Below, piece by piece: positions 6,630 through 20,815 of a stretch of 27,164 bases of DNA. Each line of letters starts with the position of its first letter. Position 1 is the stretch's first letter. Both the position numbers and the translations under genes were made by a program. Origin of the DNA: a virus (Duplodnaviria > Caudoviricetes); the IMG/VR virus record IMGVR_UViG_3300028373_000019, positions 1 through 27,164 of that record; one strand, given 5' to 3'. The notes beneath the pieces were generated by a model. That model was given only the letters and a program-made list of their open reading frames with translations, was not told where the DNA came from and did not search any database.

Positions 6630-8153
6630 TTACAACCCTAGTCGCTGACCTATTTGAGCCGCGCGGTTACTGTCTTGCTCTTGTAGCATGGCTTGAGTCC
6701 TGGCACTGGCTGGAGCTTCGGCAAACTGTAGCTGGTACGCTGTAGCATCCGCGCAGTCATCGTTTGAACCCTTGGGAAACGCTAGTAGCTCCTCTTCTAA
6801 GTCAGTACAGTCACCTTCTAGGTGATAAACCATGTGCCCTGCATACCACGGGATAAGCCCTCTGATGCGCGTTTCCTTCATAGTCTGATTGTGTTTGAGT
6901 GGGATTACATTAGGGAACTTACCTCGCTTACGCATTTCCTCTTGTAAGAATGGTTCTACCACGTACGAGAACGCACCCTCCTCGATGCCAATCTTTTCAA
7001 AACCTTCATCATGCAATAAGAATATCAGGTCAATTACTTCTTTGCTGTTAACCCGATAGCGAGTAGAGCGCAGGTTCCACTGGCCTTCGCTGTTGATATA
7101 GTTTCTAGTGACTCCACAATAATCACTTTGGTCGGACTTCTTTAAGTTGGGGTCAATCGTTACAAACCGCCTAGTAGTCATTTTAGATATCTCATCGTAT
7201 GTTCGATACTTAAACCACTCGCGCTTAAACTCACGGCTTGCATCGTCTACAGGATTAGCTTGATAGAGCGCGCTAAACTCATACGGTCCCAGGGTGTTTT
7301 TAATATCCTGTAATTCAGCTAGGTCATATCTGTCTGGCCACAGTGCCTCCCCTTTCTTGCGATACTCTTCATCATTTTCTGCTATCGCTTTGAGCTGTAG
7401 TCGTACCCATTTAGCGTCACCTAGTCCGTTTTTAATGTAGTCAAAGTAATCTACCCACGGTTCCGCTGTCTCTTTACCATCGACCAGACGGCCAATCAGG
7501 TCATCTTCATGCCAGCGAGTGTGTAGTATAAGCATACAACCAGTGGGGGTAAGTCGTGTACGAGCCACTGAGCGCAACCAAGACCACACTGTCTCTCTAG
7601 TTACTTGGCTGTCTGCCTCTTTACGGTCTTTGAAAGGGTCATCAATAATAAAGAAGTCAGCTCCCTTTCCAGTGATTGAGCCACCAACACCAGCTGCATT
7701 GTAAGCTCCCTTAGCGTTTACCCACTCACCCTTTTCATCCTTTTTTTGCGTGTTCCACTTTCCTTTAGCTGATGAGTCTGGTGCTAGTCTAGTATCAAAT
7801 ACATTCTGATACTCTCGGCTTTGAATCAAGTTACGAGTCTCACGGCCGTGGTCTGAGGCTAGGTCTCCTGAATAAGAACCAACAATGACATCGGTGTCTG
7901 GCTTACGTCCCACTACCCACGCTGGGAACCGTTGTGATACGTGTAAACTTTTTCCATGGCGAGGCGGAACTTCTATAATCAACCAGCGAATCTCTTTTTT
8001 CTCTAGCCGCTGGAGTGCGTCACACATTAACTCAGTGTGCCAACTAGACATATAACCCTCATCAACGTACCTGTTAAAGTTTGTAAAGTGCCTACGAGCT
8101 AACTCACGGCGTGCTAATTCCTTTTCCGCGTCTTTTTTAGTGAATTGTGTCAT
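6630..8153 (-). CDS. terL: Terminase large subunit
   Basis: Walker A PPRHGKS, GVGGSITGKGAD, Walker B FIIDDP, TRWHEDDL, nuclease domain TIDP...D and FPKGSNDDCAD. Confidence 0.97.
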   Translation of the reverse strand: MTQFTKKDAEKELARRELARRHFTNFNRYVDEGYMSSWHTELMCDALQRLEKKEIRWLIIEVPPRHGKSLHVSQRFPAWVVGRKPDTDVIVGSYSGDLASDHGRETRNLIQSREYQNVFDTRLAPDSSAKGKWNTQKKDEKGEWVNAKGAYNAAGVGGSITGKGADFFIIDDPFKDRKEADSQVTRETVWSWLRSVARTRLTPTGCMLILHTRWHEDDLIGRLVDGKETAEPWVDYFDYIKNGLGDAKWVRLQLKAIAENDEEYRKKGEALWPDRYDLAELQDIKNTLGPYEFSALYQANPVDDASREFKREWFKYRTYDEISKMTTRRFVTIDPNLKKSDQSDYCGVTRNYINSEGQWNLRSTRYRVNSKEVIDLIFLLHDEGFEKIGIEEGAFSYVVEPFLQEEMRKRGKFPNVIPLKHNQTMKETRIRGLIPWYAGHMVYHLEGDCTDLEEELLAFPKGSNDDCADATAYQLQFAEAPASARTQAMLQEQDSNRAAQIGQRLGL

Positions 8154-8518
8154 GCTTTTCTAAATACTAACTCACGGTATGTCCCCTTAATACGCCGCGT
8201 GTCTTTGTGTTCGTGTATCAGTTCTAACCATCCCCGGTCTTCTATTCGTACAAGGATAGCGCGTTCAGTGATAGAGCCACCAGGCTTTAATATAAATAGT
8301 AGGTCTTTGTGCAGTAGTACGCACTTGTGTATATATCGTACTTGCCTATAAGTAACTGGCTGGGCTACCTGTAGTACCTCGTGAGTTCTGGCTGGTCCCC
8401 ATTGGTCACACATCTGGACTAGAGTTTCTATTACTCGTTTCTTTACCTTGTATCGTCTAGAAAAGTGCTGGAGTAAATCTACATGCTTTATATCGTTGTA
8501 TACTATAAAGTTACTCAT
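8150..8518 (-). CDS. Hypothetical basic protein between terminase genes
   Basis: ATGA overlap with terL. Likely start is ATG 8518 (MSNFIV), overlapping the terS end. Confidence 0.55.
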   Translation of the reverse strand: MSNFIVYNDIKHVDLLQHFSRRYKVKKRVIETLVQMCDQWGPARTHEVLQVAQPVTYRQVRYIHKCVLLHKDLLFILKPGGSITERAILVRIEDRGWLELIHEHKDTRRIKGTYRELVFRKA

Positions 8519-8957
8519 CCGTTTTCTTGTCACCTGCTAGTGCTAGTAGTTCTGCATCAGACATTTCTGAGACTTTGTTTATTTCTATAGCTCCACCGTC
8601 TTTTCCGGTAAACTCTGACCGTTCTGAGTACTTGTCTTTTTTCAATCCCTTCAAAACAAGTTTAGCGGCGTCTAGTTTTAATCTACCTGCTCCACTATCA
8701 ACTCTGCCTTCTTCGTTTACTGTGATGTATCCTAGTGCCTCTGAGAGTGCTTTTTCAGCTCTACTTACTAATTCTTCGTCCTTGACACTATCTGACAGCC
8801 AATCTAGATCCTTACTAAGTATCACCGAAGCATACTCATCTTCATACCCTGCGTGTAGTGCGGAACGGTATGCATTAGAAAATGTCTCGCTTTTGGGGTC
8901 TAGGTAAGCCGCTAAGAATAAAGATTGTCTCGGGTCTGCTTTGTACTGGTTAGCCAT
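8511..8957 (-). CDS. terS: Terminase small subunit
   Basis: PRQSLFLAAYLDP..TFSNAYRSALHAGY N-terminus and EFTGKDGGAIEI...MSDAEL C-terminus, both typical of TerS. ATG at 8957. Confidence 0.85.
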   Translation of the reverse strand: MANQYKADPRQSLFLAAYLDPKSETFSNAYRSALHAGYEDEYASVILSKDLDWLSDSVKDEELVSRAEKALSEALGYITVNEEGRVDSGAGRLKLDAAKLVLKGLKKDKYSERSEFTGKDGGAIEINKVSEMSDAELLALAGDKKTDE

Positions 8958-8980
8958 ATACAACTACTATACCACGTTGT

Positions 8981-9205
8981 TTAACTTACTACTGCAAATA
9001 TCTGCGTGTAGTCGATGTAGTAGAAACCGTTATCTAGTTTGTTGGCTACCCCTATTACTACCTTGTCTTGTAAATCTTTTGACTCCTCTGTTGTGGCTAC
9101 AACTTTGTATCGTGGTTCACCTCCGCCTGTGATAATTCCAGACCCACTAATAGTTTCATTATCTACTTTTGTTGCTATGACGTATTTGTTTATTGCTGTG
9201 TACAT
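8981..9205 (-). CDS. GroES/Cpn10-like co-chaperonin
   Basis: Cpn10 pattern: KYVIATKV, mobile-loop-like ETISGSGII, KVVAT, DKVVI, YYIDYTQIFAVV. Confidence 0.65.
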   Translation of the reverse strand: MYTAINKYVIATKVDNETISGSGIITGGGEPRYKVVATTEESKDLQDKVVIGVANKLDNGFYYIDYTQIFAVVS

Positions 9206-9216
9206 ATTTATATATA

Positions 9217-9342
9217 TTGTCCCCCATAGACGAATCGAACGTCTGCGGTGTAGTGAGTCGGTGTATTGATATGAGTCAATACAGATAGACAGAAAAGATA
9301 AATAAGAAATATCTCACTACTAGGTGCTTACCATAAGGGGGA
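9217..9342 (-). ncRNA. tRNA-like RNA carrying antisense segments in place of the anticodon arm
   Basis: Acceptor-like stem CCCCCTT/ATGGGGG followed by A-CAA. Perfect T arm AGACG-TTCGATT-CGTCT. Stemless D-like region ATGGTAAGCACCTA. An 8-bp helix GTAGTGAG/CTCACTAC encloses a 30-nt loop and a 7-bp hairpin. TATAAT at 9365..9360 upstream. Confidence 0.8.
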
Positions 9343-9390
9343 TGGAGAGCTAACCTCCTATTATAGGTATTTCGCCTTCTAGCTCTTCTA

Positions 9391-9705
9391 TTATACCTTA
9401 TTGGGTGGGGTTTTGTCTAGGGTTTTCTTATCGTAAAGGGGCTTTACTACTTTCGCTATGATGTCGGTGAGGATTTCTTCAGGAGTTTTCCTAACTATAT
9501 ATTCATGGTCGTGCATAACTTTCTTCGTTATCTCCATCCCCTCTATCCCCTCCACTAGGCTTGTGTATGCCTGGTTGCGGTCATCGATGATTAGCTTTTG
9601 AACATCCTCTACTTTGTAATTGTCGTAGTTAATTATGTCGTTTGGTAAATCTTTAAACATACTCCAGCCTTTGGTTAGTTCGTCTACTGATGTTAGTTTT
9701 TTCAT
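9391..9705 (-). CDS. Hypothetical protein
   Basis: 104 aa. TATAGT lies 8 nt before the ATG. Confidence 0.65.
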   Translation of the reverse strand: MKKLTSVDELTKGWSMFKDLPNDIINYDNYKVEDVQKLIIDDRNQAYTSLVEGIEGMEITKKVMHDHEYIVRKTPEEILTDIIAKVVKPLYDKKTLDKTPPNKV

Positions 9706-9747
9706 ATCCTCTCACTATACACCTCTGGGGTTTTATTGGTAGTTAGG

Positions 9748-10272
9748 TTATCCCCGTTTTAAATCTTCCAGTATCTTACTAAGTCGCTCGTAGTTCTCTA
9801 TGTAAAAGTGTACGTCTGCTTTTACCATGATTGGCTTTTTTGCTTTTAAAGGTAGCCACCATTCCATGCCTTTCTGTTCTACTATTACCGATGACCAGTA
9901 TGTCTCATGGCTGTGTAGCATCATGTGACAAGGGGTGCAGAGAGGGATTAGGTTGTCTATGTCGTAGCGTAAGTTTGTACACTGTGACTTTAAAACGTGG
10001 TGGTGCGCCACTTGTGTAACACTTTGACAGTTTTCCGCTGCTCCTAGAAAACAATAGGGGTGCATTGCCTTGATTATCGGGGTCAGGAACTTGTCACACT
10101 TATTACGCATTGTCTTGACCGTAGGGAGCTTGGTGCGGACAACCTTTGACTTACTAGCTTTCTTGGCTTTAATGGGCTTAGAATCGATTGTAGCCGCTCT
10201 CAGGGCACGTTTAGCTGCTTGTTTAGCTTTCACTTCCTCTATGCTTTTTTGCTTAAATCCTGACCTTACCAT
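9748..10272 (-). CDS. NinG/Rap-like HNH nuclease
   Basis: Basic N-terminus, then C..C, AHHH, LRYDIDNLIPLCTPCH. Confidence 0.75.
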   Translation of the reverse strand: MVRSGFKQKSIEEVKAKQAAKRALRAATIDSKPIKAKKASKSKVVRTKLPTVKTMRNKCDKFLTPIIKAMHPYCFLGAAENCQSVTQVAHHHVLKSQCTNLRYDIDNLIPLCTPCHMMLHSHETYWSSVIVEQKGMEWWLPLKAKKPIMVKADVHFYIENYERLSKILEDLKRG

Positions 10273-10286
10273 ATGGCTTTAGTATA

Positions 10287-10613
10287 TCACTTCGTCTTGT
10301 GCCATTCGTAGGCAATGATGTTCCAGACGGCTTGCATGGCGTGGTCCTCGTCGCGTTCTCCGTTTCGCCATTGTTCAAAGTGTCTGTAACCAGAACCGAT
10401 GAAGCGTTGGTATTCTTCTTCTGTTTCGGCTTTCTGCCAGTTGTTGTCTCCGTATTTAAATGATCCCCTGGTGTATACCTCAGCTAGTCTTTTAAGGATG
10501 TTGGGCGGGATTAGATCGTAGCGGGGTTTGTTCTCAGCTACGTCACGGTTAAAGCCTGACTTGAATGTCACTCGCTTGCCACTGTCTTTGGTGATGAACT
10601 GTTCTTTTTTCAT
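10287..10613 (-). CDS. dATP/dGTP diphosphohydrolase domain protein (DUF5664-like)
   Basis: KPRYDLIPP..LKRLAEVYTRGSFKYGDNNWQK, RH..QW..GE..EDH...AVWN. Confidence 0.8.
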   Translation of the reverse strand: MKKEQFITKDSGKRVTFKSGFNRDVAENKPRYDLIPPNILKRLAEVYTRGSFKYGDNNWQKAETEEEYQRFIGSGYRHFEQWRNGERDEDHAMQAVWNIIAYEWHKTK

Positions 10614-10927
10614 TTATTTTTTGCAGCTAACTCTTTTCGTCTTTGCTTTAGTAGGTCTTTGAGCCAGTCTTCTGCAATGTCGTATTTCTTAGGGTTGTTT
10701 TCCCATTTATACCCATTTTCTGTTTTACAAGATACATCTAGTTTGTAGCCAAAGCTGCTGACAAACTCTTGAAGTATCTTTAGCTCACACTCGAAGTCAT
10801 TAAATATTCCGTCATCCTTCAGTGGTGTGGTAAGCGACAGGTCGGCTTCTATTCGGTGTTCCAGGGCGTAGGCTAGGTCAAACATCTCACTGCTTGTTAG
10901 CTCTACGGTGTATTTTGTGATTTCCAT
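10610..10927 (-). CDS. Hypothetical protein
   Basis: 105 aa, ATGA-coupled to the next gene. Confidence 0.65.
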   Translation of the reverse strand: MEITKYTVELTSSEMFDLAYALEHRIEADLSLTTPLKDDGIFNDFECELKILQEFVSSFGYKLDVSCKTENGYKWENNPKKYDIAEDWLKDLLKQRRKELAAKNK

Positions 10928-10928
10928 A

Positions 10929-11276
10929 CTAATCTAATTCTGATTTTACTCTATCAATAAACTTTTCCATCTTTTCTCGATAGACAACCTCAAAGTCTCC
11001 CTTGCTTCCGTTTTGTTGCCACCAGACAAAGATAGTAGCTCGTAGTCTTTGGGCTGGTGTCTTTTGGTTTTCTTCGGCCTGTTCTTTGGGTAAGTCTTCG
11101 GTTTGTATTTGATTAGGTGACCAGGGCAGCCAGCCAAGCTCGTCTTTTCGACCAGCATTCAGTAAGTAAATGGTTTTGTCATCAGCTATCTCTGTTCCAC
11201 TAGTAAAAGAAAGCGTACAAGAACCATCTTTATTAAAGCGGGGGTTTCTCATGTGTGCTGATAGTTGAATTTTCAT
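10929..11276 (-). CDS. Conserved-looking phage hypothetical protein
   Basis: 115 aa with KTPAQRLR..IFVWWQQ...DFE..Y..KMEKFI, a motif I recognise from uncharacterised phage proteins. Confidence 0.65.
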   Translation of the reverse strand: MKIQLSAHMRNPRFNKDGSCTLSFTSGTEIADDKTIYLLNAGRKDELGWLPWSPNQIQTEDLPKEQAEENQKTPAQRLRATIFVWWQQNGSKGDFEVVYREKMEKFIDRVKSELD

Positions 11277-11416
11277 ACGCTATTCTTATCTATTAAGGTG
11301 ATGATGCACTCTTTGAAAACTACGTGTATCTACTTCCCAAGCGTTCCTTCAAGGGTGTCGAGCTGTGTCTGCCATAGTCTTCAAGGAACACACCATATAT
11401 ACATTAAGGACTAATT

Positions 11417-11521
11417 CGAGGGTTTGAGGCGAGCAAGTACCTACTTAGTTTCGTATCTAAGGATGCAGTATCAATATGAGTAACCCCTGAGGCCGCGGAC
11501 GAACCGCCACTCAAACCCTCG
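11417..11521 (-). ncRNA. Structured RNA domain 3 of the 11.3-11.8 kb cluster
   Basis: Perfect 12-bp closing stem CGAGGGTTTGAG/CTCAAACCCTCG around three hairpins (GCGG-TTCGT-CCGC; GTTA-CTCATAT-TGAT; CTTAG-ATACGAAA-CTAAG). Confidence 0.7.
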
Positions 11522-11545
11522 CTTTAATCTTCAATGTACTGTGAT

Positions 11546-11659
11546 GATGGGCTAAATGGACGGTATCACTTTTCCGGGAGCTACCCATCGATTGGCAGAT
11601 TGTATACATCTGTGTGACACCACTGGGTCGAAACCCTACCGTCCGTTTAACCAACCATC
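11546..11659 (-). ncRNA. Structured RNA domain 2 of the cluster
   Basis: Long imperfect closing stem GATGG..GGTTAAACGGACGGTA / TACCGTCCATTTAGCCCATC. Internal hairpins GGGT-TTCG-ACCC and CAGAT-GTATACA-ATCTG. Confidence 0.65.
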
Positions 11660-11667
11660 TTGTGTAC

Positions 11668-11782
11668 GGGGCAGGTGGCGGGTGCTGTGTGTTGCGGTAT
11701 TTTCTCACTTCGCTATAGCGAGAGGTGCGGAGGATTATAAGCCCTCATTCCTACGCCAACACTAGCCTCCCCCATCTACCCC
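11668..11782 (-). ncRNA. Structured RNA domain 1 of the cluster
   Basis: Closing stem GGGGTAGATGG/CCACCTGCCCC, inner GTGTTG/CAACAC, hairpins GAGGG-CTTATAA-TCCTC and TCGC-TATA-GCGA. Begins about 10 nt after TGG-TAGTAT (11801..11793). Confidence 0.6.
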
Positions 11783-11836
11783 CAACACTTCCATACTACC
11801 ACTACCCCCCTCTATTACAATGGGAGTTGTCCACAG

Positions 11837-11986
11837 TTAGAGTTTAACAAAGTCTTCTGCATCTATTAAGGCTTGGATCACTTCGTTGCTGCTACCGTAC
11901 TTCTTGAGAATGTACTCGTGTTCTTTGCCAGACTCTAATAGGCGACAGAACTTTTCTACTAGATAGTTTTCTTCTGGGTGTGGCAT
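11837..11986 (-). CDS. Hypothetical protein (49 aa)
   Basis: MPHPEENYLVEKFCRLLESGKEHEYILKKYGSSNEVIQALIDAEDFVKL. TGC-TACACT lies 8 nt before the ATG. Confidence 0.65.
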   Translation of the reverse strand: MPHPEENYLVEKFCRLLESGKEHEYILKKYGSSNEVIQALIDAEDFVKL

Positions 11987-12029
11987 TTACGAATAGTGTA
12001 GCACGCCGTAAACAAGATATTTCTACTTA

Positions 12030-12185
12030 TCAACAGGGTCTGTCTCTTAACTCCTGGTAGTAACTTCTCTTTGGTGATGCTTTGCCGTAGTCGTCGTAGA
12101 TTACTTCTTTTTCTTTTTGTATTTGTTTAACTTCGGCAGCTACTTGTTCGGGGGTTACGTTAAATTCTTTGTAGTACGATTCCAT
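12030..12185 (-). CDS. Hypothetical protein (51 aa)
   Basis: MESYYKEFNVTPEQVAAEVKQIQKEKEVIYDDYGKASPKRSYYQELRDRPC. TATAGT lies 6 nt before the ATG. Confidence 0.6.
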   Translation of the reverse strand: MESYYKEFNVTPEQVAAEVKQIQKEKEVIYDDYGKASPKRSYYQELRDRPC

Positions 12186-12236
12186 TCATCCACTATACCC
12201 AATCTTTTCTTTTTTACTAGTCTCTTCTGTTGATAA

Positions 12237-12692
12237 CTAAATCCAGCTAAGGTCGTCAATGTTAGACTCCAGCATTTGTAAGTGTGTCTGCCTAGCTTCT
12301 TTCAAATAGGTGTCGGTATCCTTGGTCATGTTTGTTTTTAGTTGGTAGGTTTGGTGGAACATGTGGTGATGGAATTGGCACAAAGCAACTAGCGCATCGT
12401 TTGGTTCATCTCCGTACTTCACGTCATATCTTTTATGATGCAAAGTAGTTCCTTCTTTCTTACTACAAATAAAGCACCTTTTCTCGTTTTTATTCCAATA
12501 CAGCAGCTTTCTTTTCTTCCAATAAGCTGAACCCATATATTGCTTATAAGTCATGTTAGGAATCTTTCTCTTGTTCCTTGTCTTCTTTCCCCTCCTGGTT
12601 TTCTTTGCTTTTAGTAGTCTGTTGGCAGATGCCTCAAGGCCTCGTCTGTTCTTTGCTCTCTTTACTACTTCTGTGTCGTCTAGTAATCCCAT
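12237..12692 (-). CDS. HNH endonuclease
   Basis: YKQYMGSAYWKKRK...RCFICS...LHHKRY...GDE..DALVALCQFHH..FH. Confidence 0.85.
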   Translation of the reverse strand: MGLLDDTEVVKRAKNRRGLEASANRLLKAKKTRRGKKTRNKRKIPNMTYKQYMGSAYWKKRKLLYWNKNEKRCFICSKKEGTTLHHKRYDVKYGDEPNDALVALCQFHHHMFHQTYQLKTNMTKDTDTYLKEARQTHLQMLESNIDDLSWI

Positions 12693-12932
12693 GTCTTTGT
12701 TAATGAGTTATAGCACTTCCCTGTCCCTCTGTAGAAAGTAGGGATTTAGAGAAAACAAAAAATGCTTTTTCTTTTAATATAAGCCTGCACAGCAAATGAG
12801 TTCTCAGCGTGCGTGGTCTGTATTTCGATTGTCTACACCGTGTCATGTCTCCGCTAATTGAGCACAGCCAACCCTATTGCTCCCCTACGTTCTTTTAAGT
12901 GCCGTAAGAGATTTAACCCTCTACACTATTAC

Positions 12933-12960
12933 AAAAAACACACGCCGTTAAACGTGTGTC
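12933..12960 (-). terminator. Intrinsic terminator
   Basis: GACACACG-TTTAACGG-CGTGTGTT followed by TTTTG on the minus strand. Confidence 0.7.
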
Positions 12961-13061
12961 TTGTTTTGAATACTATCAACGCCAGCCCAAAGTGCGATGA
13001 ACCCACAAGTATGGGCTGAGCTGACTGTGACAATATTCAATTGGTTTACTTGTTTTTTCAT
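12948..13061 (-). CDS. Putative leader peptide (37 aa) inside an attenuator-like structure
   Basis: MKKQVNQLNIVTVSSAHTCGFIALWAGVDSIQNKTHV. ATG is 9 nt after TGG-TACAAT, and the stop falls in the terminator loop. Confidence 0.45.
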   Translation of the reverse strand: MKKQVNQLNIVTVSSAHTCGFIALWAGVDSIQNKTHV

Positions 13062-13100
13062 CGCACGTATATTGTACCACGTACCGCAGTGGAGGGGTAG

Positions 13101-13388
13101 TTAGTTATCCCCAACTTTGTTTCTCCGCTTCCTATTCGCCCACCACGCAATCTTAGGCTCACAGTTACCACTATGCTTTGTAGCTTTCTGGTATGCGCTG
13201 GTGATTTCCTCTAGTGTCCAGCCCTCTTTCTCAAATATTTTATGCAGCTGAAAGAATGGACGGCCCAGCAGCTTCGCTGTAATGGCTACCTGTTCCCCGT
13301 ACTGCTCACTAGCTGAACCTGTAACTGTAAAGTTAAACCTACTAAGGTCTGGCTTCTTGAACGTCATTGGCGATGTATATTCTTGCAT
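13101..13388 (-). CDS. Hypothetical protein (95 aa), faintly DnaD/DnaB_2-like C-terminus
   Basis: Start moved to ATG 13388, 6 nt after TATAAT. The WTLEEITSAYQKA...W segment only loosely recalls DnaD domains. Confidence 0.55.
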   Translation of the reverse strand: MQEYTSPMTFKKPDLSRFNFTVTGSASEQYGEQVAITAKLLGRPFFQLHKIFEKEGWTLEEITSAYQKATKHSGNCEPKIAWWANRKRRNKVGDN

Positions 13389-13441
13389 AAGTACATTATA
13401 CCGGTGCAAGGGTGTGACTCTTTCTCCACCTGTGGACAAAC

Positions 13442-13461
13442 AAAAAACCGCACTAGGCGGT
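13442..13461 (-). terminator. Intrinsic terminator after the ERF/SSB operon
   Basis: GACCGC-CTAGT-GCGGTT-TTTTG on the minus strand. Confidence 0.7.
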
Positions 13462-13478
13462 CATTGCTGAATAGGGGG

Positions 13479-13874
13479 TTACTTCTTCTTTGATCGGCCT
13501 TTCTTTTTAGGTGGGGTGGGTGTTTGGTCACATCCACTTCCTTCACTCACCACCCAATCCGTCCAGCTAGGTACATTGCCAGAGTTTACAGTTAAATAGT
13601 TTGTCCTCTCCACTAACTTAGCTGGTTCCTTTGTCTCTGTCTCAGGGACGTACTTTAGCTTTAAGTGGTCTAGGATAAGCTCTTGTCTTTTTCTAGTTTC
13701 GTCCATCTCCTCACGGAACTGCTCGTAGCCGACGAGTCCCCTCCATTCATCTCCATCTTTGTACGCTAGGAAGCGGCTAGTGATAGCCCCAGTAAAACGG
13801 TTGAAGGCTTGTCGCTTTGATAGTGTGATGGGTAGTCCGTCTACCTCTACTACTTCTTTTTTATTCCAAAACAT
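13479..13874 (-). CDS. Hypothetical protein
   Basis: 131 aa, starts 1 nt after the upstream stop, basic tail. Confidence 0.65.
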   Translation of the reverse strand: MFWNKKEVVEVDGLPITLSKRQAFNRFTGAITSRFLAYKDGDEWRGLVGYEQFREEMDETRKRQELILDHLKLKYVPETETKEPAKLVERTNYLTVNSGNVPSWTDWVVSEGSGCDQTPTPPKKKGRSKKK

Positions 13875-13875
13875 A

Positions 13876-14211
13876 TTACCAAGGTACTTCTGACTCTGCT
13901 ATTGCTGGAGCGTCCTGACTATCCTGTGGGTTAGTCCCGGCCTGTGGTGCCGCTTGTGGAGCCTGTGAGGGTGGTTGTGCGGTGTCTTGTGTTGGCGGCT
14001 TCCAGTCGTTTAGTTGGAGGTATAGCTTTCCACCCTGGCTGTTCTTTAGGTCAAGGTTTACCCATCCACCGCTGTTGTGCTTTTGTAGGAAGGCAATAGC
14101 TTCGTCTACTTTAATACTTAGTGCGCCCTTTACAAAGTCTGGTGCTCCTTCGTTTGGTCGCTTGAATAAAAATCCATCTGCGAATACTGGGTCTGGTTTG
14201 TTGTTGTCCAT
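13876..14211 (-). CDS. Putative single-stranded DNA-binding protein
   Basis: Compact beta domain, Q/P/A linker and acidic-aromatic end (ESEVPW). Follows the ERF gene. Likely start is ATG 14211. Confidence 0.65.
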   Translation of the reverse strand: MDNNKPDPVFADGFLFKRPNEGAPDFVKGALSIKVDEAIAFLQKHNSGGWVNLDLKNSQGGKLYLQLNDWKPPTQDTAQPPSQAPQAAPQAGTNPQDSQDAPAIAESEVPW

Positions 14212-14212
14212 A

Positions 14213-14653
14213 TTAGATTGTATATTCTTCATTAGTAGATGCTGATTTTACCGACTTTGCGTTGTCGTGGCTCTGGTGTCCGTCTGGGTCGAGATTGTTG
14301 TCTTTTATCTGAAAGACTTTCATCTTGATATATCGCTCCGAGTACGTGTCTGTACTACCCATGTTCTGTGATTCGTTTGTATTCTTTAGGTCGCCTTTAG
14401 CTGTAGCTAGAGTAAAATAGATACTCCCTGCCACATCCTGTAGGTCTACAAGCTGCATTGTTTGTTTAAGTCCGTATTCATCCCTTTCAAGATTGCAAAT
14501 AGGTAGTAGTTTAACTTCACTACAAGCCTTTGCGACTAGTGACTCCACTTCCTCGGGTGTAAAGTATTTAAACATTCCACCTGATGCAGTTTTCTTTAAG
14601 GGGGTGTTTCTAATAAGTTCTCGTGCCTTGTCTAACTTTTCGTAGATGTTCAT
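14213..14653 (-). CDS. ERF-family single-strand annealing protein
   Basis: MNIYEKL..AR, FKYF, QNMGSTDTYSERY...VFQI.D..LDPD, matching the ERF G(S/A)xxTYxxRY motif. Confidence 0.8.
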   Translation of the reverse strand: MNIYEKLDKARELIRNTPLKKTASGGMFKYFTPEEVESLVAKACSEVKLLPICNLERDEYGLKQTMQLVDLQDVAGSIYFTLATAKGDLKNTNESQNMGSTDTYSERYIKMKVFQIKDNNLDPDGHQSHDNAKSVKSASTNEEYTI

Positions 14654-14656
14654 AAT

Positions 14657-14791
14657 TTATAGTTTACCTTTTAACTGCCGTTGCTTCTGCTCCCACTCTC
14701 TGATAGGCATGTCTTTTAGTATCTCATCAAAGGCTTTGCCGATTTGGGTGCGTTGCCCGATGATGGGCTTGTCTATCTCTAGGGGTTTCAT
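14657..14791 (-). CDS. Hypothetical protein (44 aa)
   Basis: MKPLEIDKPIIGQRTQIGKAFDEILKDMPIREWEQKQRQLKGKL. Fills the gap between its neighbours. Confidence 0.55.
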   Translation of the reverse strand: MKPLEIDKPIIGQRTQIGKAFDEILKDMPIREWEQKQRQLKGKL

Positions 14792-14792
14792 A

Positions 14793-14987
14793 CTACTTAG
14801 TTAGATTAGTAACCTCTCGTAAAATAGTGTTCTTGATGTGTCGTCCCCAGCCCTCGGCGTAGATGAGTAGACCCTCTACACCTTGCCTTTCTAGCCAAAC
14901 TTCAAAGAAGTCGGGCATGTCATCGTCTAGGATTTCAGGATACAGTTCAAAACATCGGTCTTCTAGGTACTGTTCAAATGATTTCAT
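14793..14987 (-). CDS. Hypothetical acidic protein
   Basis: 64 aa, tightly packed in the operon. Confidence 0.65.
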   Translation of the reverse strand: MKSFEQYLEDRCFELYPEILDDDMPDFFEVWLERQGVEGLLIYAEGWGRHIKNTILREVTNLTK

Positions 14988-14988
14988 A

Positions 14989-15177
14989 TTAGTTGTATCG
15001 TTCGTTAAATTGCTTGGACTTATAATCTAGCTCTTGGAAGTTCTGTACCTCGTACGGTATGTCTGTCACTGGTAGGCCTCCTGGTTGATAATTGTTTTTA
15101 CCTTTTATGCTGTCTCTTGTGTCTCGACTACGTTGCCTCAACTCTTCTTGGGTTAATGGTTTAGTAGACATGTCCAT
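14989..15177 (-). CDS. Hypothetical protein
   Basis: 62 aa. Start may be 15171. Confidence 0.55.
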   Translation of the reverse strand: MDMSTKPLTQEELRQRSRDTRDSIKGKNNYQPGGLPVTDIPYEVQNFQELDYKSKQFNERYN

Positions 15178-15259
15178 CTGAGATTAGGGTTACGTTGATA
15201 AATGTTTCTTGACTGGTCTCTACGTTTTCTTGGTTGATTTGGTCTGGTGATTTATTCAT
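15161..15259 (-). CDS. First ORF of the leftward early operon (32 aa)
   Basis: MNKSPDQINQENVETSQETFINVTLISDGHVY. First ATG after the leftward promoter, preceded by an A-rich leader. Confidence 0.5.
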   Translation of the reverse strand: MNKSPDQINQENVETSQETFINVTLISDGHVY

Positions 15260-15290
15260 ATATATTTCTTATTTATCTGCTTCACTTGTA

Positions 15291-15408
15291 AAGATAGCAT
15301 ATGCAGCGGTACCGTCAAGCAAAGTTATACACAGGGTATATAGCCATATATACATAGCTAAAGTTATCCCCACTTGATACTGGACAGGTACCGCTATTGT
15401 GCTACTAT
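15291..15408. promoter_or_regulatory. Divergent early promoter pair with a shared operator-like motif
   Basis: Leftward TTGACG-16-TATCTT (15318..15291), rightward TGGACA-16-TACTAT (15381..15408). Both have TGn extensions, both contain GGTACCGCT at the -35/spacer, and each has a DnaA-like box upstream. Confidence 0.75.
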
Positions 15409-15434
15409 CAGGGAGTACCAGCTAAGATAGACAT

Positions 15435-15596
15435 ATGGACGACGAGTTAAAAGCCCGCACCACAAGATTACGCCCAGACCAAGTAGACGCTTTAGAAGTA
15501 GCCAGGGCAGTCGACGGAATAGACGACGCAAAGTATATCCGTCAGTTGCTCGATGAACATTTACCAAAAAGAATGAGACGACTAAAAATAAAATAA
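15435..15596 (+). CDS. Ribbon-helix-helix (CopG/Arc-like) transcriptional regulator (53 aa)
   Basis: Not in the ORF track: MDDELKARTTRLRPDQVDALEVARAVDGIDDAKYIRQLLDEHLPKRMRRLKIK. Strand-helix-G-helix pattern with a YIR..L motif. First gene of the rightward operon. Confidence 0.7.
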   Translation: MDDELKARTTRLRPDQVDALEVARAVDGIDDAKYIRQLLDEHLPKRMRRLKIK

Positions 15597-15597
15597 A

Positions 15598-15756
15598 ATG
15601 ACCACAACCCTACGAGTACAACCTGACTATAAGACCTACAAGTTAGCCATCAAGAACAAAGCTACTGGTCAAACAAAGTCCTACACCCGTACCCTTAAAA
15701 ACGGTAATGTGATTCTTACTTGGAACACAATGCTTAAAGCTGCAAAGCATATCTAG
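15598..15756 (+). CDS. Hypothetical basic protein (52 aa)
   Basis: MTTTLRVQPDYKTYKLAIKNKATGQTKSYTRTLKNGNVILTWNTMLKAAKHI. 1-nt gaps to both neighbours. Confidence 0.6.
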   Translation: MTTTLRVQPDYKTYKLAIKNKATGQTKSYTRTLKNGNVILTWNTMLKAAKHI

Positions 15757-16099: not shown

Positions 16100-16393
16100 A
16101 TGACAAACCAAACAATAGAACAAGCGGTGGAGGAGTTTAAGAAACAATTTAATGCTTATCAAACTACTTCAAGTTCTCCTTACCCACTGTTGGTTGACTG
16201 GCTACGCCAAGCCCTACAAGCCCAACGTGACGCTGGGGCTAAAGAGGAGAGGGACAAGTGGGTCAAAGCCGTTGGCGAAAAAATAGACAAGAACACACGA
16301 GAGCTAATGATGTCATCGTTTAATGAAGGGGTGGCTGTAACGAGGGCGCAGTACGATGAGGCAATTAAAAACTTAACCCCACCCACTAAATAA
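16100..16393 (+). CDS. Hypothetical protein, paralogue of 16628..16912
   Basis: Shares the MTN..E..VE.F start, R(D/E)AGA(K/R)EER.K and the LTPPTK end. Confidence 0.7.
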   Translation: MTNQTIEQAVEEFKKQFNAYQTTSSSPYPLLVDWLRQALQAQRDAGAKEERDKWVKAVGEKIDKNTRELMMSSFNEGVAVTRAQYDEAIKNLTPPTK

Positions 16394-16395
16394 CT

Positions 16396-16614
16396 ATGAC
16401 TAAGATACGAGGCAAACAATTAAGAAACTTATCAGGTATTTTTTTTCGAGAAAAGATTGGTGACAAATGGGAAAATGTCTGCTTTGAAGAATGTAGTGAT
16501 AAAAAGCAAAAAGAGATTTTATCCCACAAGGACACTGAGTTCGTCAGGGGTATTGCTTTACACCTAGCAAAAACTATAAATGAAATTGGCGACCAGTTTA
16601 ATTTACAAAAATAA
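16396..16614 (+). CDS. Hypothetical protein
   Basis: 72 aa in the operon. Confidence 0.65.
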   Translation: MTKIRGKQLRNLSGIFFREKIGDKWENVCFEECSDKKQKEILSHKDTEFVRGIALHLAKTINEIGDQFNLQK

Positions 16615-16627
16615 ATAAGTAACACCC

Positions 16628-16912
16628 ATGACTAATATACCAAGCGTAGAGGAGAGAGTGGAGGGGTTTATGTCTCAATATGCGTGGGGTAAGTTTTTTA
16701 CCATTGAGCTAGAGCAAGAAGTTAGAGAAAACTTGCTTAAAACACTCACCGCCACACGTGAAGCAGGGGCTAGGGAGGAAAGGCAGAAGTGTGTTGCTGA
16801 AATGAAAACACACAAACATAATAGAAAGTTTATAACTGTTAACGGCACACTTCAAATGATGAGCATGATTGAACTTATAGAAACAGGTGCCCTAACCCCA
16901 CCCACTAAATAA
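16628..16912 (+). CDS. Hypothetical protein, paralogue of 16100..16393
   Basis: See paralogue. Confidence 0.7.
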   Translation: MTNIPSVEERVEGFMSQYAWGKFFTIELEQEVRENLLKTLTATREAGAREERQKCVAEMKTHKHNRKFITVNGTLQMMSMIELIETGALTPPTK

Positions 16913-16914
16913 CT

Positions 16915-17025
16915 ATGACAGCAACAGTAACCCTAGTCGTCCTCTGTACCCTACACAACTACATGATAAGTAACTGTGTACCGCCAGAGCTATTACCAAT
17001 GGAAGTAATGATGTGTGAATTATGA
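16915..17025 (+). CDS. Hypothetical protein (36 aa)
   Basis: MTATVTLVVLCTLHNYMISNCVPPELLPMEVMMCEL. Starts in the junction repeat and has an ATGA overlap with the next ORF. Confidence 0.45.
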   Translation: MTATVTLVVLCTLHNYMISNCVPPELLPMEVMMCEL

Positions 17026-18915: not shown

Positions 18916-19048
18916 GATGATAGGTAGTTCCCAGTAGTGGTGTGTTCAACAGGCGTATGATGTATTAAGTCACCGTATGGTGCGCTAACCTTTATCTCGA
19001 CAAGGGAGCGCCTATCAAGCAGACTACTACTGGGAACTACCTATCATC
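18916..19048 (+). ncRNA. Structured leader or RNA closed by a perfect 23-bp inverted repeat
   Basis: GATGATAGGTAGTTCCCAGTAGT (18916-18938) pairs with ACTACTGGGAACTACCTATCATC (19026-19048). Inner helices AGGCG/CGCCT and CACC-GTAT-GGTG. TATACT at 18900. Confidence 0.7.
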
Positions 19049-20137: not shown

Positions 20138-20185
20138 CCCCAATCTCCCCTTGTGTTATGTACGGGTGTTATATATATTAAAGGC

Positions 20186-20815
20186 ATGAATGAATATCAC
20201 AAAATAGAAACTCTCTTTGAGAGAGATATGGATGGAACAAAGAAACTTATAGAAGGTAAGTTTCGGAATGAATGCGTAGAGTATTTAAAAGATAACGAGT
20301 GGATGTTTACTGAAAAAGTAGATGGAACGAATGTGCGAGTCCACTGGGATGGTCATAAAGTTTCTTTTGGTGGAAGAACTGATAACGCACAAATGCCGAT
20401 GCCTCTAATGGAAAGACTGCAATTCCTGTTCGGCGGTAACACTAACGAAGAATTGTTTGAACAGAAGTTTGGTGCAAACCCTGTTACCTTTTATGGTGAG
20501 GGATATGGTGGAAAAATACAATCAGGGAGCCTCTATAAAGAAACGCAAGACTTTATTTTGTTTGACGTGAAGGTTGGTGAAACGTGGCTACAGCGTGAGA
20601 ACATAGAGGCATTGGCAGAAACATTTGCATTAGACGTTGTGCCAGTTATGCTACGTGGAACCATTCAAGATGCGATTGAGTATGTAAAAACTAGGCCCGA
20701 CAGTCCGATTGGTAAAGGGAAGCTAAGTGAAGGATTGATTGGAGTGCCACTAGCAAGACTCACAGACTTTAGAGGTAATAGAATTATTGTAAAGATTAAA
20801 GAATGTGATTTCTAA
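20186..20815 (+). CDS. ATP-dependent RNA ligase (Rnl2-like adenylation domain)
   Basis: Nucleotidyltransferase motifs I EKVDGTN, III FYGEGYG, IIIa FILFDV, IV EGLIG and V IVKIK. ATG at 20186. Confidence 0.85.
   Translation: MNEYHKIETLFERDMDGTKKLIEGKFRNECVEYLKDNEWMFTEKVDGTNVRVHWDGHKVSFGGRTDNAQMPMPLMERLQFLFGGNTNEELFEQKFGANPVTFYGEGYGGKIQSGSLYKETQDFILFDVKVGETWLQRENIEALAETFALDVVPVMLRGTIQDAIEYVKTRPDSPIGKGKLSEGLIGVPLARLTDFRGNRIIVKIKECDF

Follow-up and report, generated by a model that had tools for sequence, protein, structure and literature searches.

The C4 RNA of phages P1 and P7 is described in PMC5320573 as a product of RNase P processing, in which two loops occlude ribosome-binding sites. According to the same source, it is about 77 nt long, has three stem-loops, and carries GGW at its processed 5' end (PMC5320573). 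The CI RNA of satellite phage P4 is reported to arise by processing and, as a small antisense RNA, to pair with two sequences (PMC4825925, PMC3632133). Y RNAs (YrlA) are non-coding tRNA mimics, some of which are cut by RNase P, and which occur in phages too, as described in PMC4201824.

The RNA considered here was found in a 27-kb linear phage record (27,164 nt, about 70% complete), which was analysed at its whole length and is referred to as the window. Positions 9217..9342 of its minus strand form a structured non-coding RNA gene with a predicted product of ~122 nt. The minimum-energy fold is -34.5 kcal/mol (z -4.03), with 0 of 200 shuffles equally good, a result that counts for an antisense reading, and the tRNA-shelled RNA can be regarded with high confidence as a genuine structured RNA family. 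It is present in 24 contigs including this one, some of which are perhaps the same phage resampled, and always occupies the same position between a consensus promoter and the packaging genes. These contigs were reached by searches with terL, terS, the GroES-like ORF, DNA patterns, and an early ORF. Five sequence classes can be discerned: A (10 contigs), B (11 contigs), C (G001, 85% complete), D (L082, with its 5' end cut), and E (G007, complete). The parts of the RNA gene in the window are as follows.

9390..9419, minus: sigma-70-type consensus promoter TAGACA-18-TATAAT, which probably drives the RNA
9342..9383, minus: predicted 5' leader of the precursor, its start placed ~7 nt past the -10 box; length and sequence differ between alleles
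9335..9341, minus: 5' strand of the acceptor stem; RNase P is predicted to cut before 9341
9321..9334, minus: D-loop-like linker with GG at 9332-9331 and no conserved D stem; TATGGTA is invariant in 15/15 aligned class A and B alleles
9313..9320, minus: 5' strand of an 8-bp helix at the position of the anticodon stem; the helix sequence is another in each class
9292..9312, minus: U-rich guide strand, 17 nt of which are the exact complement of the left early leader, plus 4 nt able to lengthen the duplex
9283..9291, minus: 9-mer, a doubtful second guide, complementary to the leader of the RHH-like gene
9263..9282, minus: inner 7-bp hairpin, overlooked by the initial annotation; classes A, B, D, and E have a hairpin 3' of the loop
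9250..9257, minus: 3' strand of the 8-bp helix, pairing with 9320-9313
9228..9244, minus: T arm AGACG-TTCGATT-CGTCT with a 5-bp stem, paired 100% in 15 alleles, with two-sided changes at 3 of 5 pairs
9217..9227, minus: 3' strand of the acceptor stem (9227-9221), discriminator A9220, then CAA; CCA is not encoded

On re-inspection of the sequence, all coordinates that the initial annotation had given proved right, and the acceptor-like stem, the T arm, and the 8-bp helix were confirmed. The acceptor pairs (9341-9335/9227-9221) comprise five C-G, one U-U, and one U-A. The helix had been thought to enclose a loop of 30 nt, but the enclosed part is 55 nt long and consists of a 30-nt strand, the 7-bp hairpin (9282-9263), and a 5-nt linker. 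The description of the 30-nt strand as single-stranded needs qualifying, as the ends of the 17-mer pair together in the minimum-energy fold and UUUCUUAUU forms the apical loop, the fully open form having an energy of -28.0 versus -34.5. A 7-bp acceptor stem and T arm are compatible with 5' maturation by RNase P, the predicted route. The promoter motif, ~50 nt upstream of the RNA, is common to classes A, B, and E.

Pairing in the acceptor and T stems amounts to 94% across the 15 class A and B alleles aligned, and 5 of 12 pairs are changed on both sides, although these changes mostly represent a single contrast between the two classes. Classes C and E have further T stems of different sequence that are still paired, and both retain the D-like GG. 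Classes A, D, and E have a layout in common: a helix, a pyrimidine-rich strand of 26–30 nt, a hairpin, a linker, and the closing helix. The RNA of G007 has little sequence in common with that of this phage, and has the same layout and position. The loops are 46–63% U in classes A, B, and E; those of class B act like slippage-prone repeats, and the L111 loop is nearly pure U/C. The proposal of a conserved tRNA scaffold with a variable loop is supported. Stem pairs co-vary, and the U-rich loop changes among classes. Phages whose terL proteins are 98–99% identical carry different RNA classes at the same place.

One pattern search returned 33 matches, comprising 13 from the tRNA-shelled family, 3 with a different shell, 15 true tRNA arrays, and 2 unstructured sequences. 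The complete record G006 (terL 71%) yielded no such RNA, and neither did 8 of 9 records reached via early ORF 14793 (most of them partial) or a strict T-arm scan of distant terL loci, many of which are without the upstream region. GenBank phages yielded no relative of the RNA, only 13 short chance matches, and their terL identity is at most 37% among the 15 matches listed. A possible minimal hairpin with acceptor and T arm lies at about 7270-7315 of L050, 2.7 kb upstream of a distant terL. L089 carries a cluster of six tRNAs at 2215-2683, including Arg(TCG) and none with an encoded CCA, which is absent from the window.

The tRNA-like domain of tmRNA has an acceptor stem, a stemless D loop, a long helix replacing the anticodon arm, and a T arm, a layout that the tRNA-shelled RNA shares. 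It differs from tmRNA in having no G3-U70 (pair 3 is C-G in 15/15 alleles), in holding 55 nt inside the helix, and in receiving no tmRNA call from ARAGORN. Unlike a tRNA, it has neither an anticodon stem with a 7-nt loop nor a D stem. The ARAGORN and Rfam checks proposed by the initial annotation were run and gave no tRNA or family match at the RNA: ARAGORN called no gene in the window, nor did it place one at the RNA in those sister loci that were scanned, and an Rfam search of the window returned no family match for it. In engineered tRNA-scaffold RNAs, a cargo RNA is put in the anticodon arm for stability; the present RNA, by comparison, occurs in nature, with a cargo that differs from one sister phage to another.

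Like C4 (RF01695), as far as the description in PMC5320573 extends, this phage RNA has a terminal stem of a kind that RNase P could process, phage-variable single-stranded guides, and targets, here putative, in ribosome-binding regions. Unlike C4 (77 nt, starting with GGW; PMC5320573), it is predicted to be ~122 nt long and to start with CCC, and it includes both a genuine T arm and a D-like GG. Its guide hangs from the helix at the anticodon position, some 6 kb separate it from its target, which in L106 lies on the opposite strand, and no antirepressor or integrase context was found. As regards the two guide loops of C4, this RNA has one strong match at a start and a second segment that is weak and not conserved. 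Searches with RF01695 gave no match up to E 10 on 9150-9450, nor up to E 1 on the window; 0 of 5 records matched, and control genomes were equally without matches. Its likeness to P4 CI lies in being a probable small antisense RNA with predicted processing (PMC4825925, PMC3632133). In those accounts, CI targets seqA and seqC, which flank CI itself, and causes premature termination (PMC4825925, PMC3632133), whereas here the match covers a distant translation start. No exact match of at least 9 nt occurs near the RNA, and the best is 5.9 kb away. Y RNAs are described as adjoining Ro60 and as having permuted T and D arms (PMC4201824), while the present RNA keeps tRNA order, and no Ro60 (TROVE) match was seen in the ORFs flanking it among the window proteins scanned, a subset of ORFs. 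By analogy, the tRNA-shelled RNA likely works like P1/P7 C4 and P4 CI, and is a member of neither, nor a tRNA, tmRNA, or Y RNA. Literature searches, in which subscription journals were thinly covered, brought up work on RNase P, C4, Y RNAs, and atypical tRNAs and no description of its layout.

Leftward from 15259, the window carries a 32-codon ORF, small ORFs, an ERF recombinase, an HNH gene, a dATP/dGTP pyrophosphohydrolase, and then the RNA. Beyond the RNA are the GroES-like ORF, the terS-like ORF, the terminase large subunit, and then presumed head genes. A second gene set starts at the RHH-like ORF (15435) and runs rightward. The features that matter for what follows are listed below.

6630..8963, minus: packaging block of a terS-like ORF (assigned by position, without a family match), a small ORF, and the terminase large subunit
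8981..9205, minus: GroES-like ORF (phrog_3188, E 1e-3), beginning 12 nt after the RNA; other genes stand in its place in several alleles
15161..15259, minus: first ORF of the leftward early operon, 32 codons; it runs into the start of the following ORF and is conserved in L089/L124 and L106
15262..15283, minus: main target, an A-rich leader without a Shine-Dalgarno motif, at -24..-3 of ATG 15259; nearly the entire predicted 5' UTR
15318-15291, minus: leftward promoter TTGACG/TG-TATCTT
15425..15433, plus: putative second target, 9 nt before the RHH-like gene, complement of 9291-9283
15435-15596, plus: RHH-like gene

The reading of the RNA as a separate unit preceding the packaging genes is supported, and this position holds across classes. 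It is not a leader of one gene, because the gene that follows differs among alleles and is often provided with a separate -10 box. Late expression, which had also been proposed, is not borne out, as the promoter matches the sigma-70 consensus at 11 of 12 positions. The ATG at 15259 was correctly placed as the start of the first leftward early gene, although the 'gene' is only a 32-codon ORF overlapping the next ORF's start; a search with this ORF returned only two contigs, both already in the comparison set. The RHH regulator named on the right has no Pfam or PHROG match, and its CopG/RHH identity is indicated only by language-model look-alikes at 0.93–0.94. Contigs compared over 9150-15700 are mosaic, and so is the right-hand module.

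Several further features were observed in these genomes. At 1-620 of L106, the early module is inverted relative to the window, such that the RHH-like genes run into ERF and the short ORF points away, and a 9-nt inverted repeat overlaps both divergent early promoters. The minus strand of the window has a large structured non-coding region at 11300-11780 (z -5.05), within which a hairpin (11400-11538) has its ends kept and its interior replaced in sister contigs, suggesting a second RNA with variable cargo. A long hairpin at 18916-19048 has 40-nt arms, 23 nt of which form an exact inverted repeat. A conserved ORF of ~37 codons lies within a long hairpin and has its own -10 box (window about 12950-13060, minus; L089 4426-4539; L106 3309-3419). 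An RNA ligase gene occupies 20153-20815 on the plus strand (PF09414, E 4e-15). In the rightward operon, an exact 27-nt direct repeat at 16374-16400 and 16893-16919 spans a stop codon and the next start, and its core, CCCCACCCA, is also found inverted in the spacer of the RNA's promoter. Together with the five-copy leader of G009 described below, these repeats look like cassette boundaries.

The central observation is the match between the guide strand and the left early leader. The 17-mer at 9312-9296 is identical to plus-strand 15262-15278, that is, it is complementary to -19..-3 of ATG 15259; this complementarity, noted in the initial annotation, is exact and beyond chance. No other exact long-range inverted repeat in the window is as long, and its copies are 5.9 kb apart. 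Shuffled loops or RNAs reach 17 in 0–4 of 5000 trials (six tests), the target ranks 1 of 56 start regions, and both results favour an antisense reading. Elsewhere, the longest match of the real loop is at most 14 (121 other loci, 1.4 Mb). Viral contigs gave 0 matches to the exact 22-nt target leader. The 4 nt previously considered a linker can themselves pair with the left leader, in an arrangement of 17+4 bp across one bulge, and the duplex thus likely extends to 21 bp. Most class A alleles carry the 17-mer without change. Across four DNA runs, the intact 17-nt target accounts for most of the contig depth (which does not measure copy number), and target variants cluster at 15264-15269. In one of these variants, A>T at 15264 is combined with deletion of 15269, giving the 10-letter TTTTCTATTT, which is present in class B loops such as that of L001, a correspondence derived by hand for a variant that is not tied to an RNA class.

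Other observations count against an antisense reading. In L089, the 17-mer is identical and the orthologous target has a central mismatch (G>A) and an indel, leaving 10 contiguous pairs. Strict co-variation of guide and target, which had been expected, therefore fails here, with the target altered and the guide unchanged; in L108, the guide is changed and the contig ends short of the target. A near-identical leader occurs in five copies in G009 and one in L129, before unrelated genes, and no tRNA-shelled RNA was found in G009 (91% complete) or L129. When G-U pairs are allowed, the 17-mer target is only third genome-wide. As judged by sequence comparison, the target is partly a generic strong leader type of which this genome has a perfect copy. 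The recurrence of the leader in G009 and L129, together with the L089 mismatch, would make the guide antisense to a common strong leader type.

Other loops match their own genomes in part. The RNA and the divergent early region are both present in only 4 records; three loop/genome statistics were picked successively after seeing the data, and the p values below are uncorrected for multiple testing. Against the left early leader, pairing of the class B loop extends over 8 nt in its own genome versus 4–6 in others, and that of the class E loop over 8 versus 6–7 (p 0.03–0.09). When all starts are considered and one G-U is allowed, the longest pairing of the class A loop is 17 and 12 within class A genomes, against 11 at most in the nine others. 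The class B loop reaches 12 in its own genome versus 7–8 in those of class A, and class E gives no own-genome diagonal. Contiguous pairing exceeds that of shuffled loops at p<0.05 in 3 of 9 loop/genome pairs (this window, L105, and L106). For class B, the best own target has p 0.04 in L106 and 0.007 in L105, and is the same gene in both. Class C (G001, 85% complete) shows no own-start signal in contiguous pairing (p 0.83). By best-start energy, 0 of 4 genomes beat shuffled loops at p<0.05 (p 0.07–0.36); such energy-based genome scans are uninformative because U-rich loops pair widely through G-U. When starts bearing an 8-mer match are counted, significance is reached in 1 of 10 own-genome tests (G001, 0.037), driven by the complement of the start codon. 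A 10-nt match of the L106 loop to its own early promoter spacer was set aside as chance.

Leaders in these phages are A-rich, and Shine-Dalgarno-like motifs precede only 13 of 175 genes in five genomes. Three contigs of other phages have a smaller tRNA shell (L115 2965-3040; L118 7462-7537; L119, minus strand, within 10001-10123) near a tRNA-Asn gene, and its pyrimidine loop is complementary to their own Shine-Dalgarno-type leaders; 6 of 41 starts are matched versus 1.0 expected (p 0.02). This suggests that the loop may follow the start-region code in use.

The favoured interpretation, to which we assign a probability of roughly 55% from sequence comparisons, is that the tRNA-shelled RNA pairs its U-rich strand with A-rich starts of the phage's own genes, here chiefly the first leftward early gene, and so blocks translation. 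Host RNA polymerase would transcribe the RNA from its own consensus promoter, and RNase P and 3' trimming would free a stable RNA of ~122 nt. The apical U-rich loop would nucleate a duplex of up to 21 bp over -24..-3, ribosome entry would be blocked, and the 32-codon ORF and the ORF coupled to it would remain untranslated; the overlap with the next start could spread repression. Weaker matches of 9–12 bp to other starts, such as that of the RHH gene, may be secondary targets. The RNA would accumulate during infection and damp early expression, and could also act on co-infecting relatives with matching leaders. Immunity in lysogens, an earlier suggestion, is unlikely, as four RNA-bearing records, among them the complete G007, were searched and gave neither a tyrosine integrase nor a serine recombinase. 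Damping of early expression or exclusion of co-infecting relatives fits the data better.

The initial annotation had proposed two dedicated guides, one for each divergent early operon, acting as an early-to-late switch or an exclusion device. The 9-mer (9291-9283) is indeed an exact complement of 15425-15433, at -10..-2 of ATG 15435 on the facing leader, and for that leader alone its p value is about 0.004–0.012. It is kept in two contigs covering the right leader; in the four DNA runs, this leader drew little or no coverage, which carries no weight as evidence. The sole independent support for a two-leader design comes from G007, a complete and distant phage in which both divergent leaders are matched: in the first divergent gene of this phage, the stretch paired with the loop includes the start codon (E -13.9, p 0.005 by energy and 0.10 by length), and the loop pairs over 8 nt with the other early leader (p 0.03 by length and 0.08 by energy). 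Against this, the match is at chance level overall, as 4996 of 5000 shuffled loops have a match of at least 9 somewhere in the window, and 48% match one of the 56 start regions as well as the 9-mer does. Nor is it a conserved second guide: the segment differs among class A alleles, L089 combines the same 17-mer with a changed 9-mer and a different RHH gene without a match (p 0.4–0.5), and the first rightward leader of L106 has no match to the L106 loop (p 0.4–1.0 over both genomes). The right-hand module is moreover mosaic. A dedicated two-guide device seems distinctly improbable.

It is also unlikely, if slightly less so, that the loop is a generic U-rich strand, serving as a broad inhibitor of A-rich leaders with low specificity or as a decoy for a single-stranded RNA-binding protein such as ribosomal protein S1, in which case the 17-mer would have been captured from a common leader instead of being maintained as a guide. 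The U content of the A, B, and E loops, the variable repeat of class B, the widespread target-like leader, and the lack of compensation in L089 all point this way, as does the class C loop, which pairs with starts of unrelated phages no less well than with its own (p 0.01–0.17). The exact 17-nt match, its first rank among starts, its constancy in most class A alleles, and the class-specific diagonal for A and B are at odds with it. The shell might instead be a processing signal ahead of the packaging genes (RNase P plus 3' cleavage), or a decoy for tRNA-recognising defence, with the loop as filler. A position fixed before these genes in all five classes, the ATG only 12 nt away, and the RNA ligase of the window are compatible with such a role, but it leaves the helix-loop-hairpin layout and the 17-mer unexplained, and the RNA has its own promoter while several alleles provide another -10 box for the next gene; we consider it very unlikely. 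Hardly credible is a feature acting at the DNA level, either a tRNA-remnant attachment site or 17-bp inverted repeats for inversion or protein binding. The 17-mers do form an inverted repeat and the L106 early module is oppositely oriented; however, both acceptor strands co-vary, the 4 records searched have no integrase or serine recombinase, and L106 lacks a long repeat between loop and leader.

Building on the antisense interpretation, the tRNA fold could be a natural, reprogrammable antisense chassis, its shell enlisting the tRNA maturation of the host and its anticodon-arm cassette being swapped between sister phages to suit the start-region code, with classes A–E as exclusion types that silence the early operons of matching phages. 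This extension is tentative and rather less probable than not. If true, A-rich leaders would be targeted here and Shine-Dalgarno leaders elsewhere, within a recombining lake phage population. The 24 runs listed with the region are lake or salt-lake DNA metagenomes; no RNA run was among them, a result with no bearing on expression. Weak hints point to a host among the Patescibacteria: terL is 50% identical over part of its length to a sequence on a MAG contig assigned to Ca. Levyibacteriota (one of three loci), and a portal homologue occurs in 1 of 401 Ca. Levyibacteriota genomes, with ORF 14793 in 0 of 401.

If the antisense interpretation is true, these RNAs would constitute an uncatalogued class of phage regulatory RNA, missed by tRNA finders and Rfam alike. 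They provide a natural allele series for swap comparisons, and a natural counterpart of the engineered tRNA-scaffold design. They would also represent a form of antisense control suited to hosts that initiate translation without Shine-Dalgarno pairing, possibly the Patescibacteria, whose phage gene control is little known.
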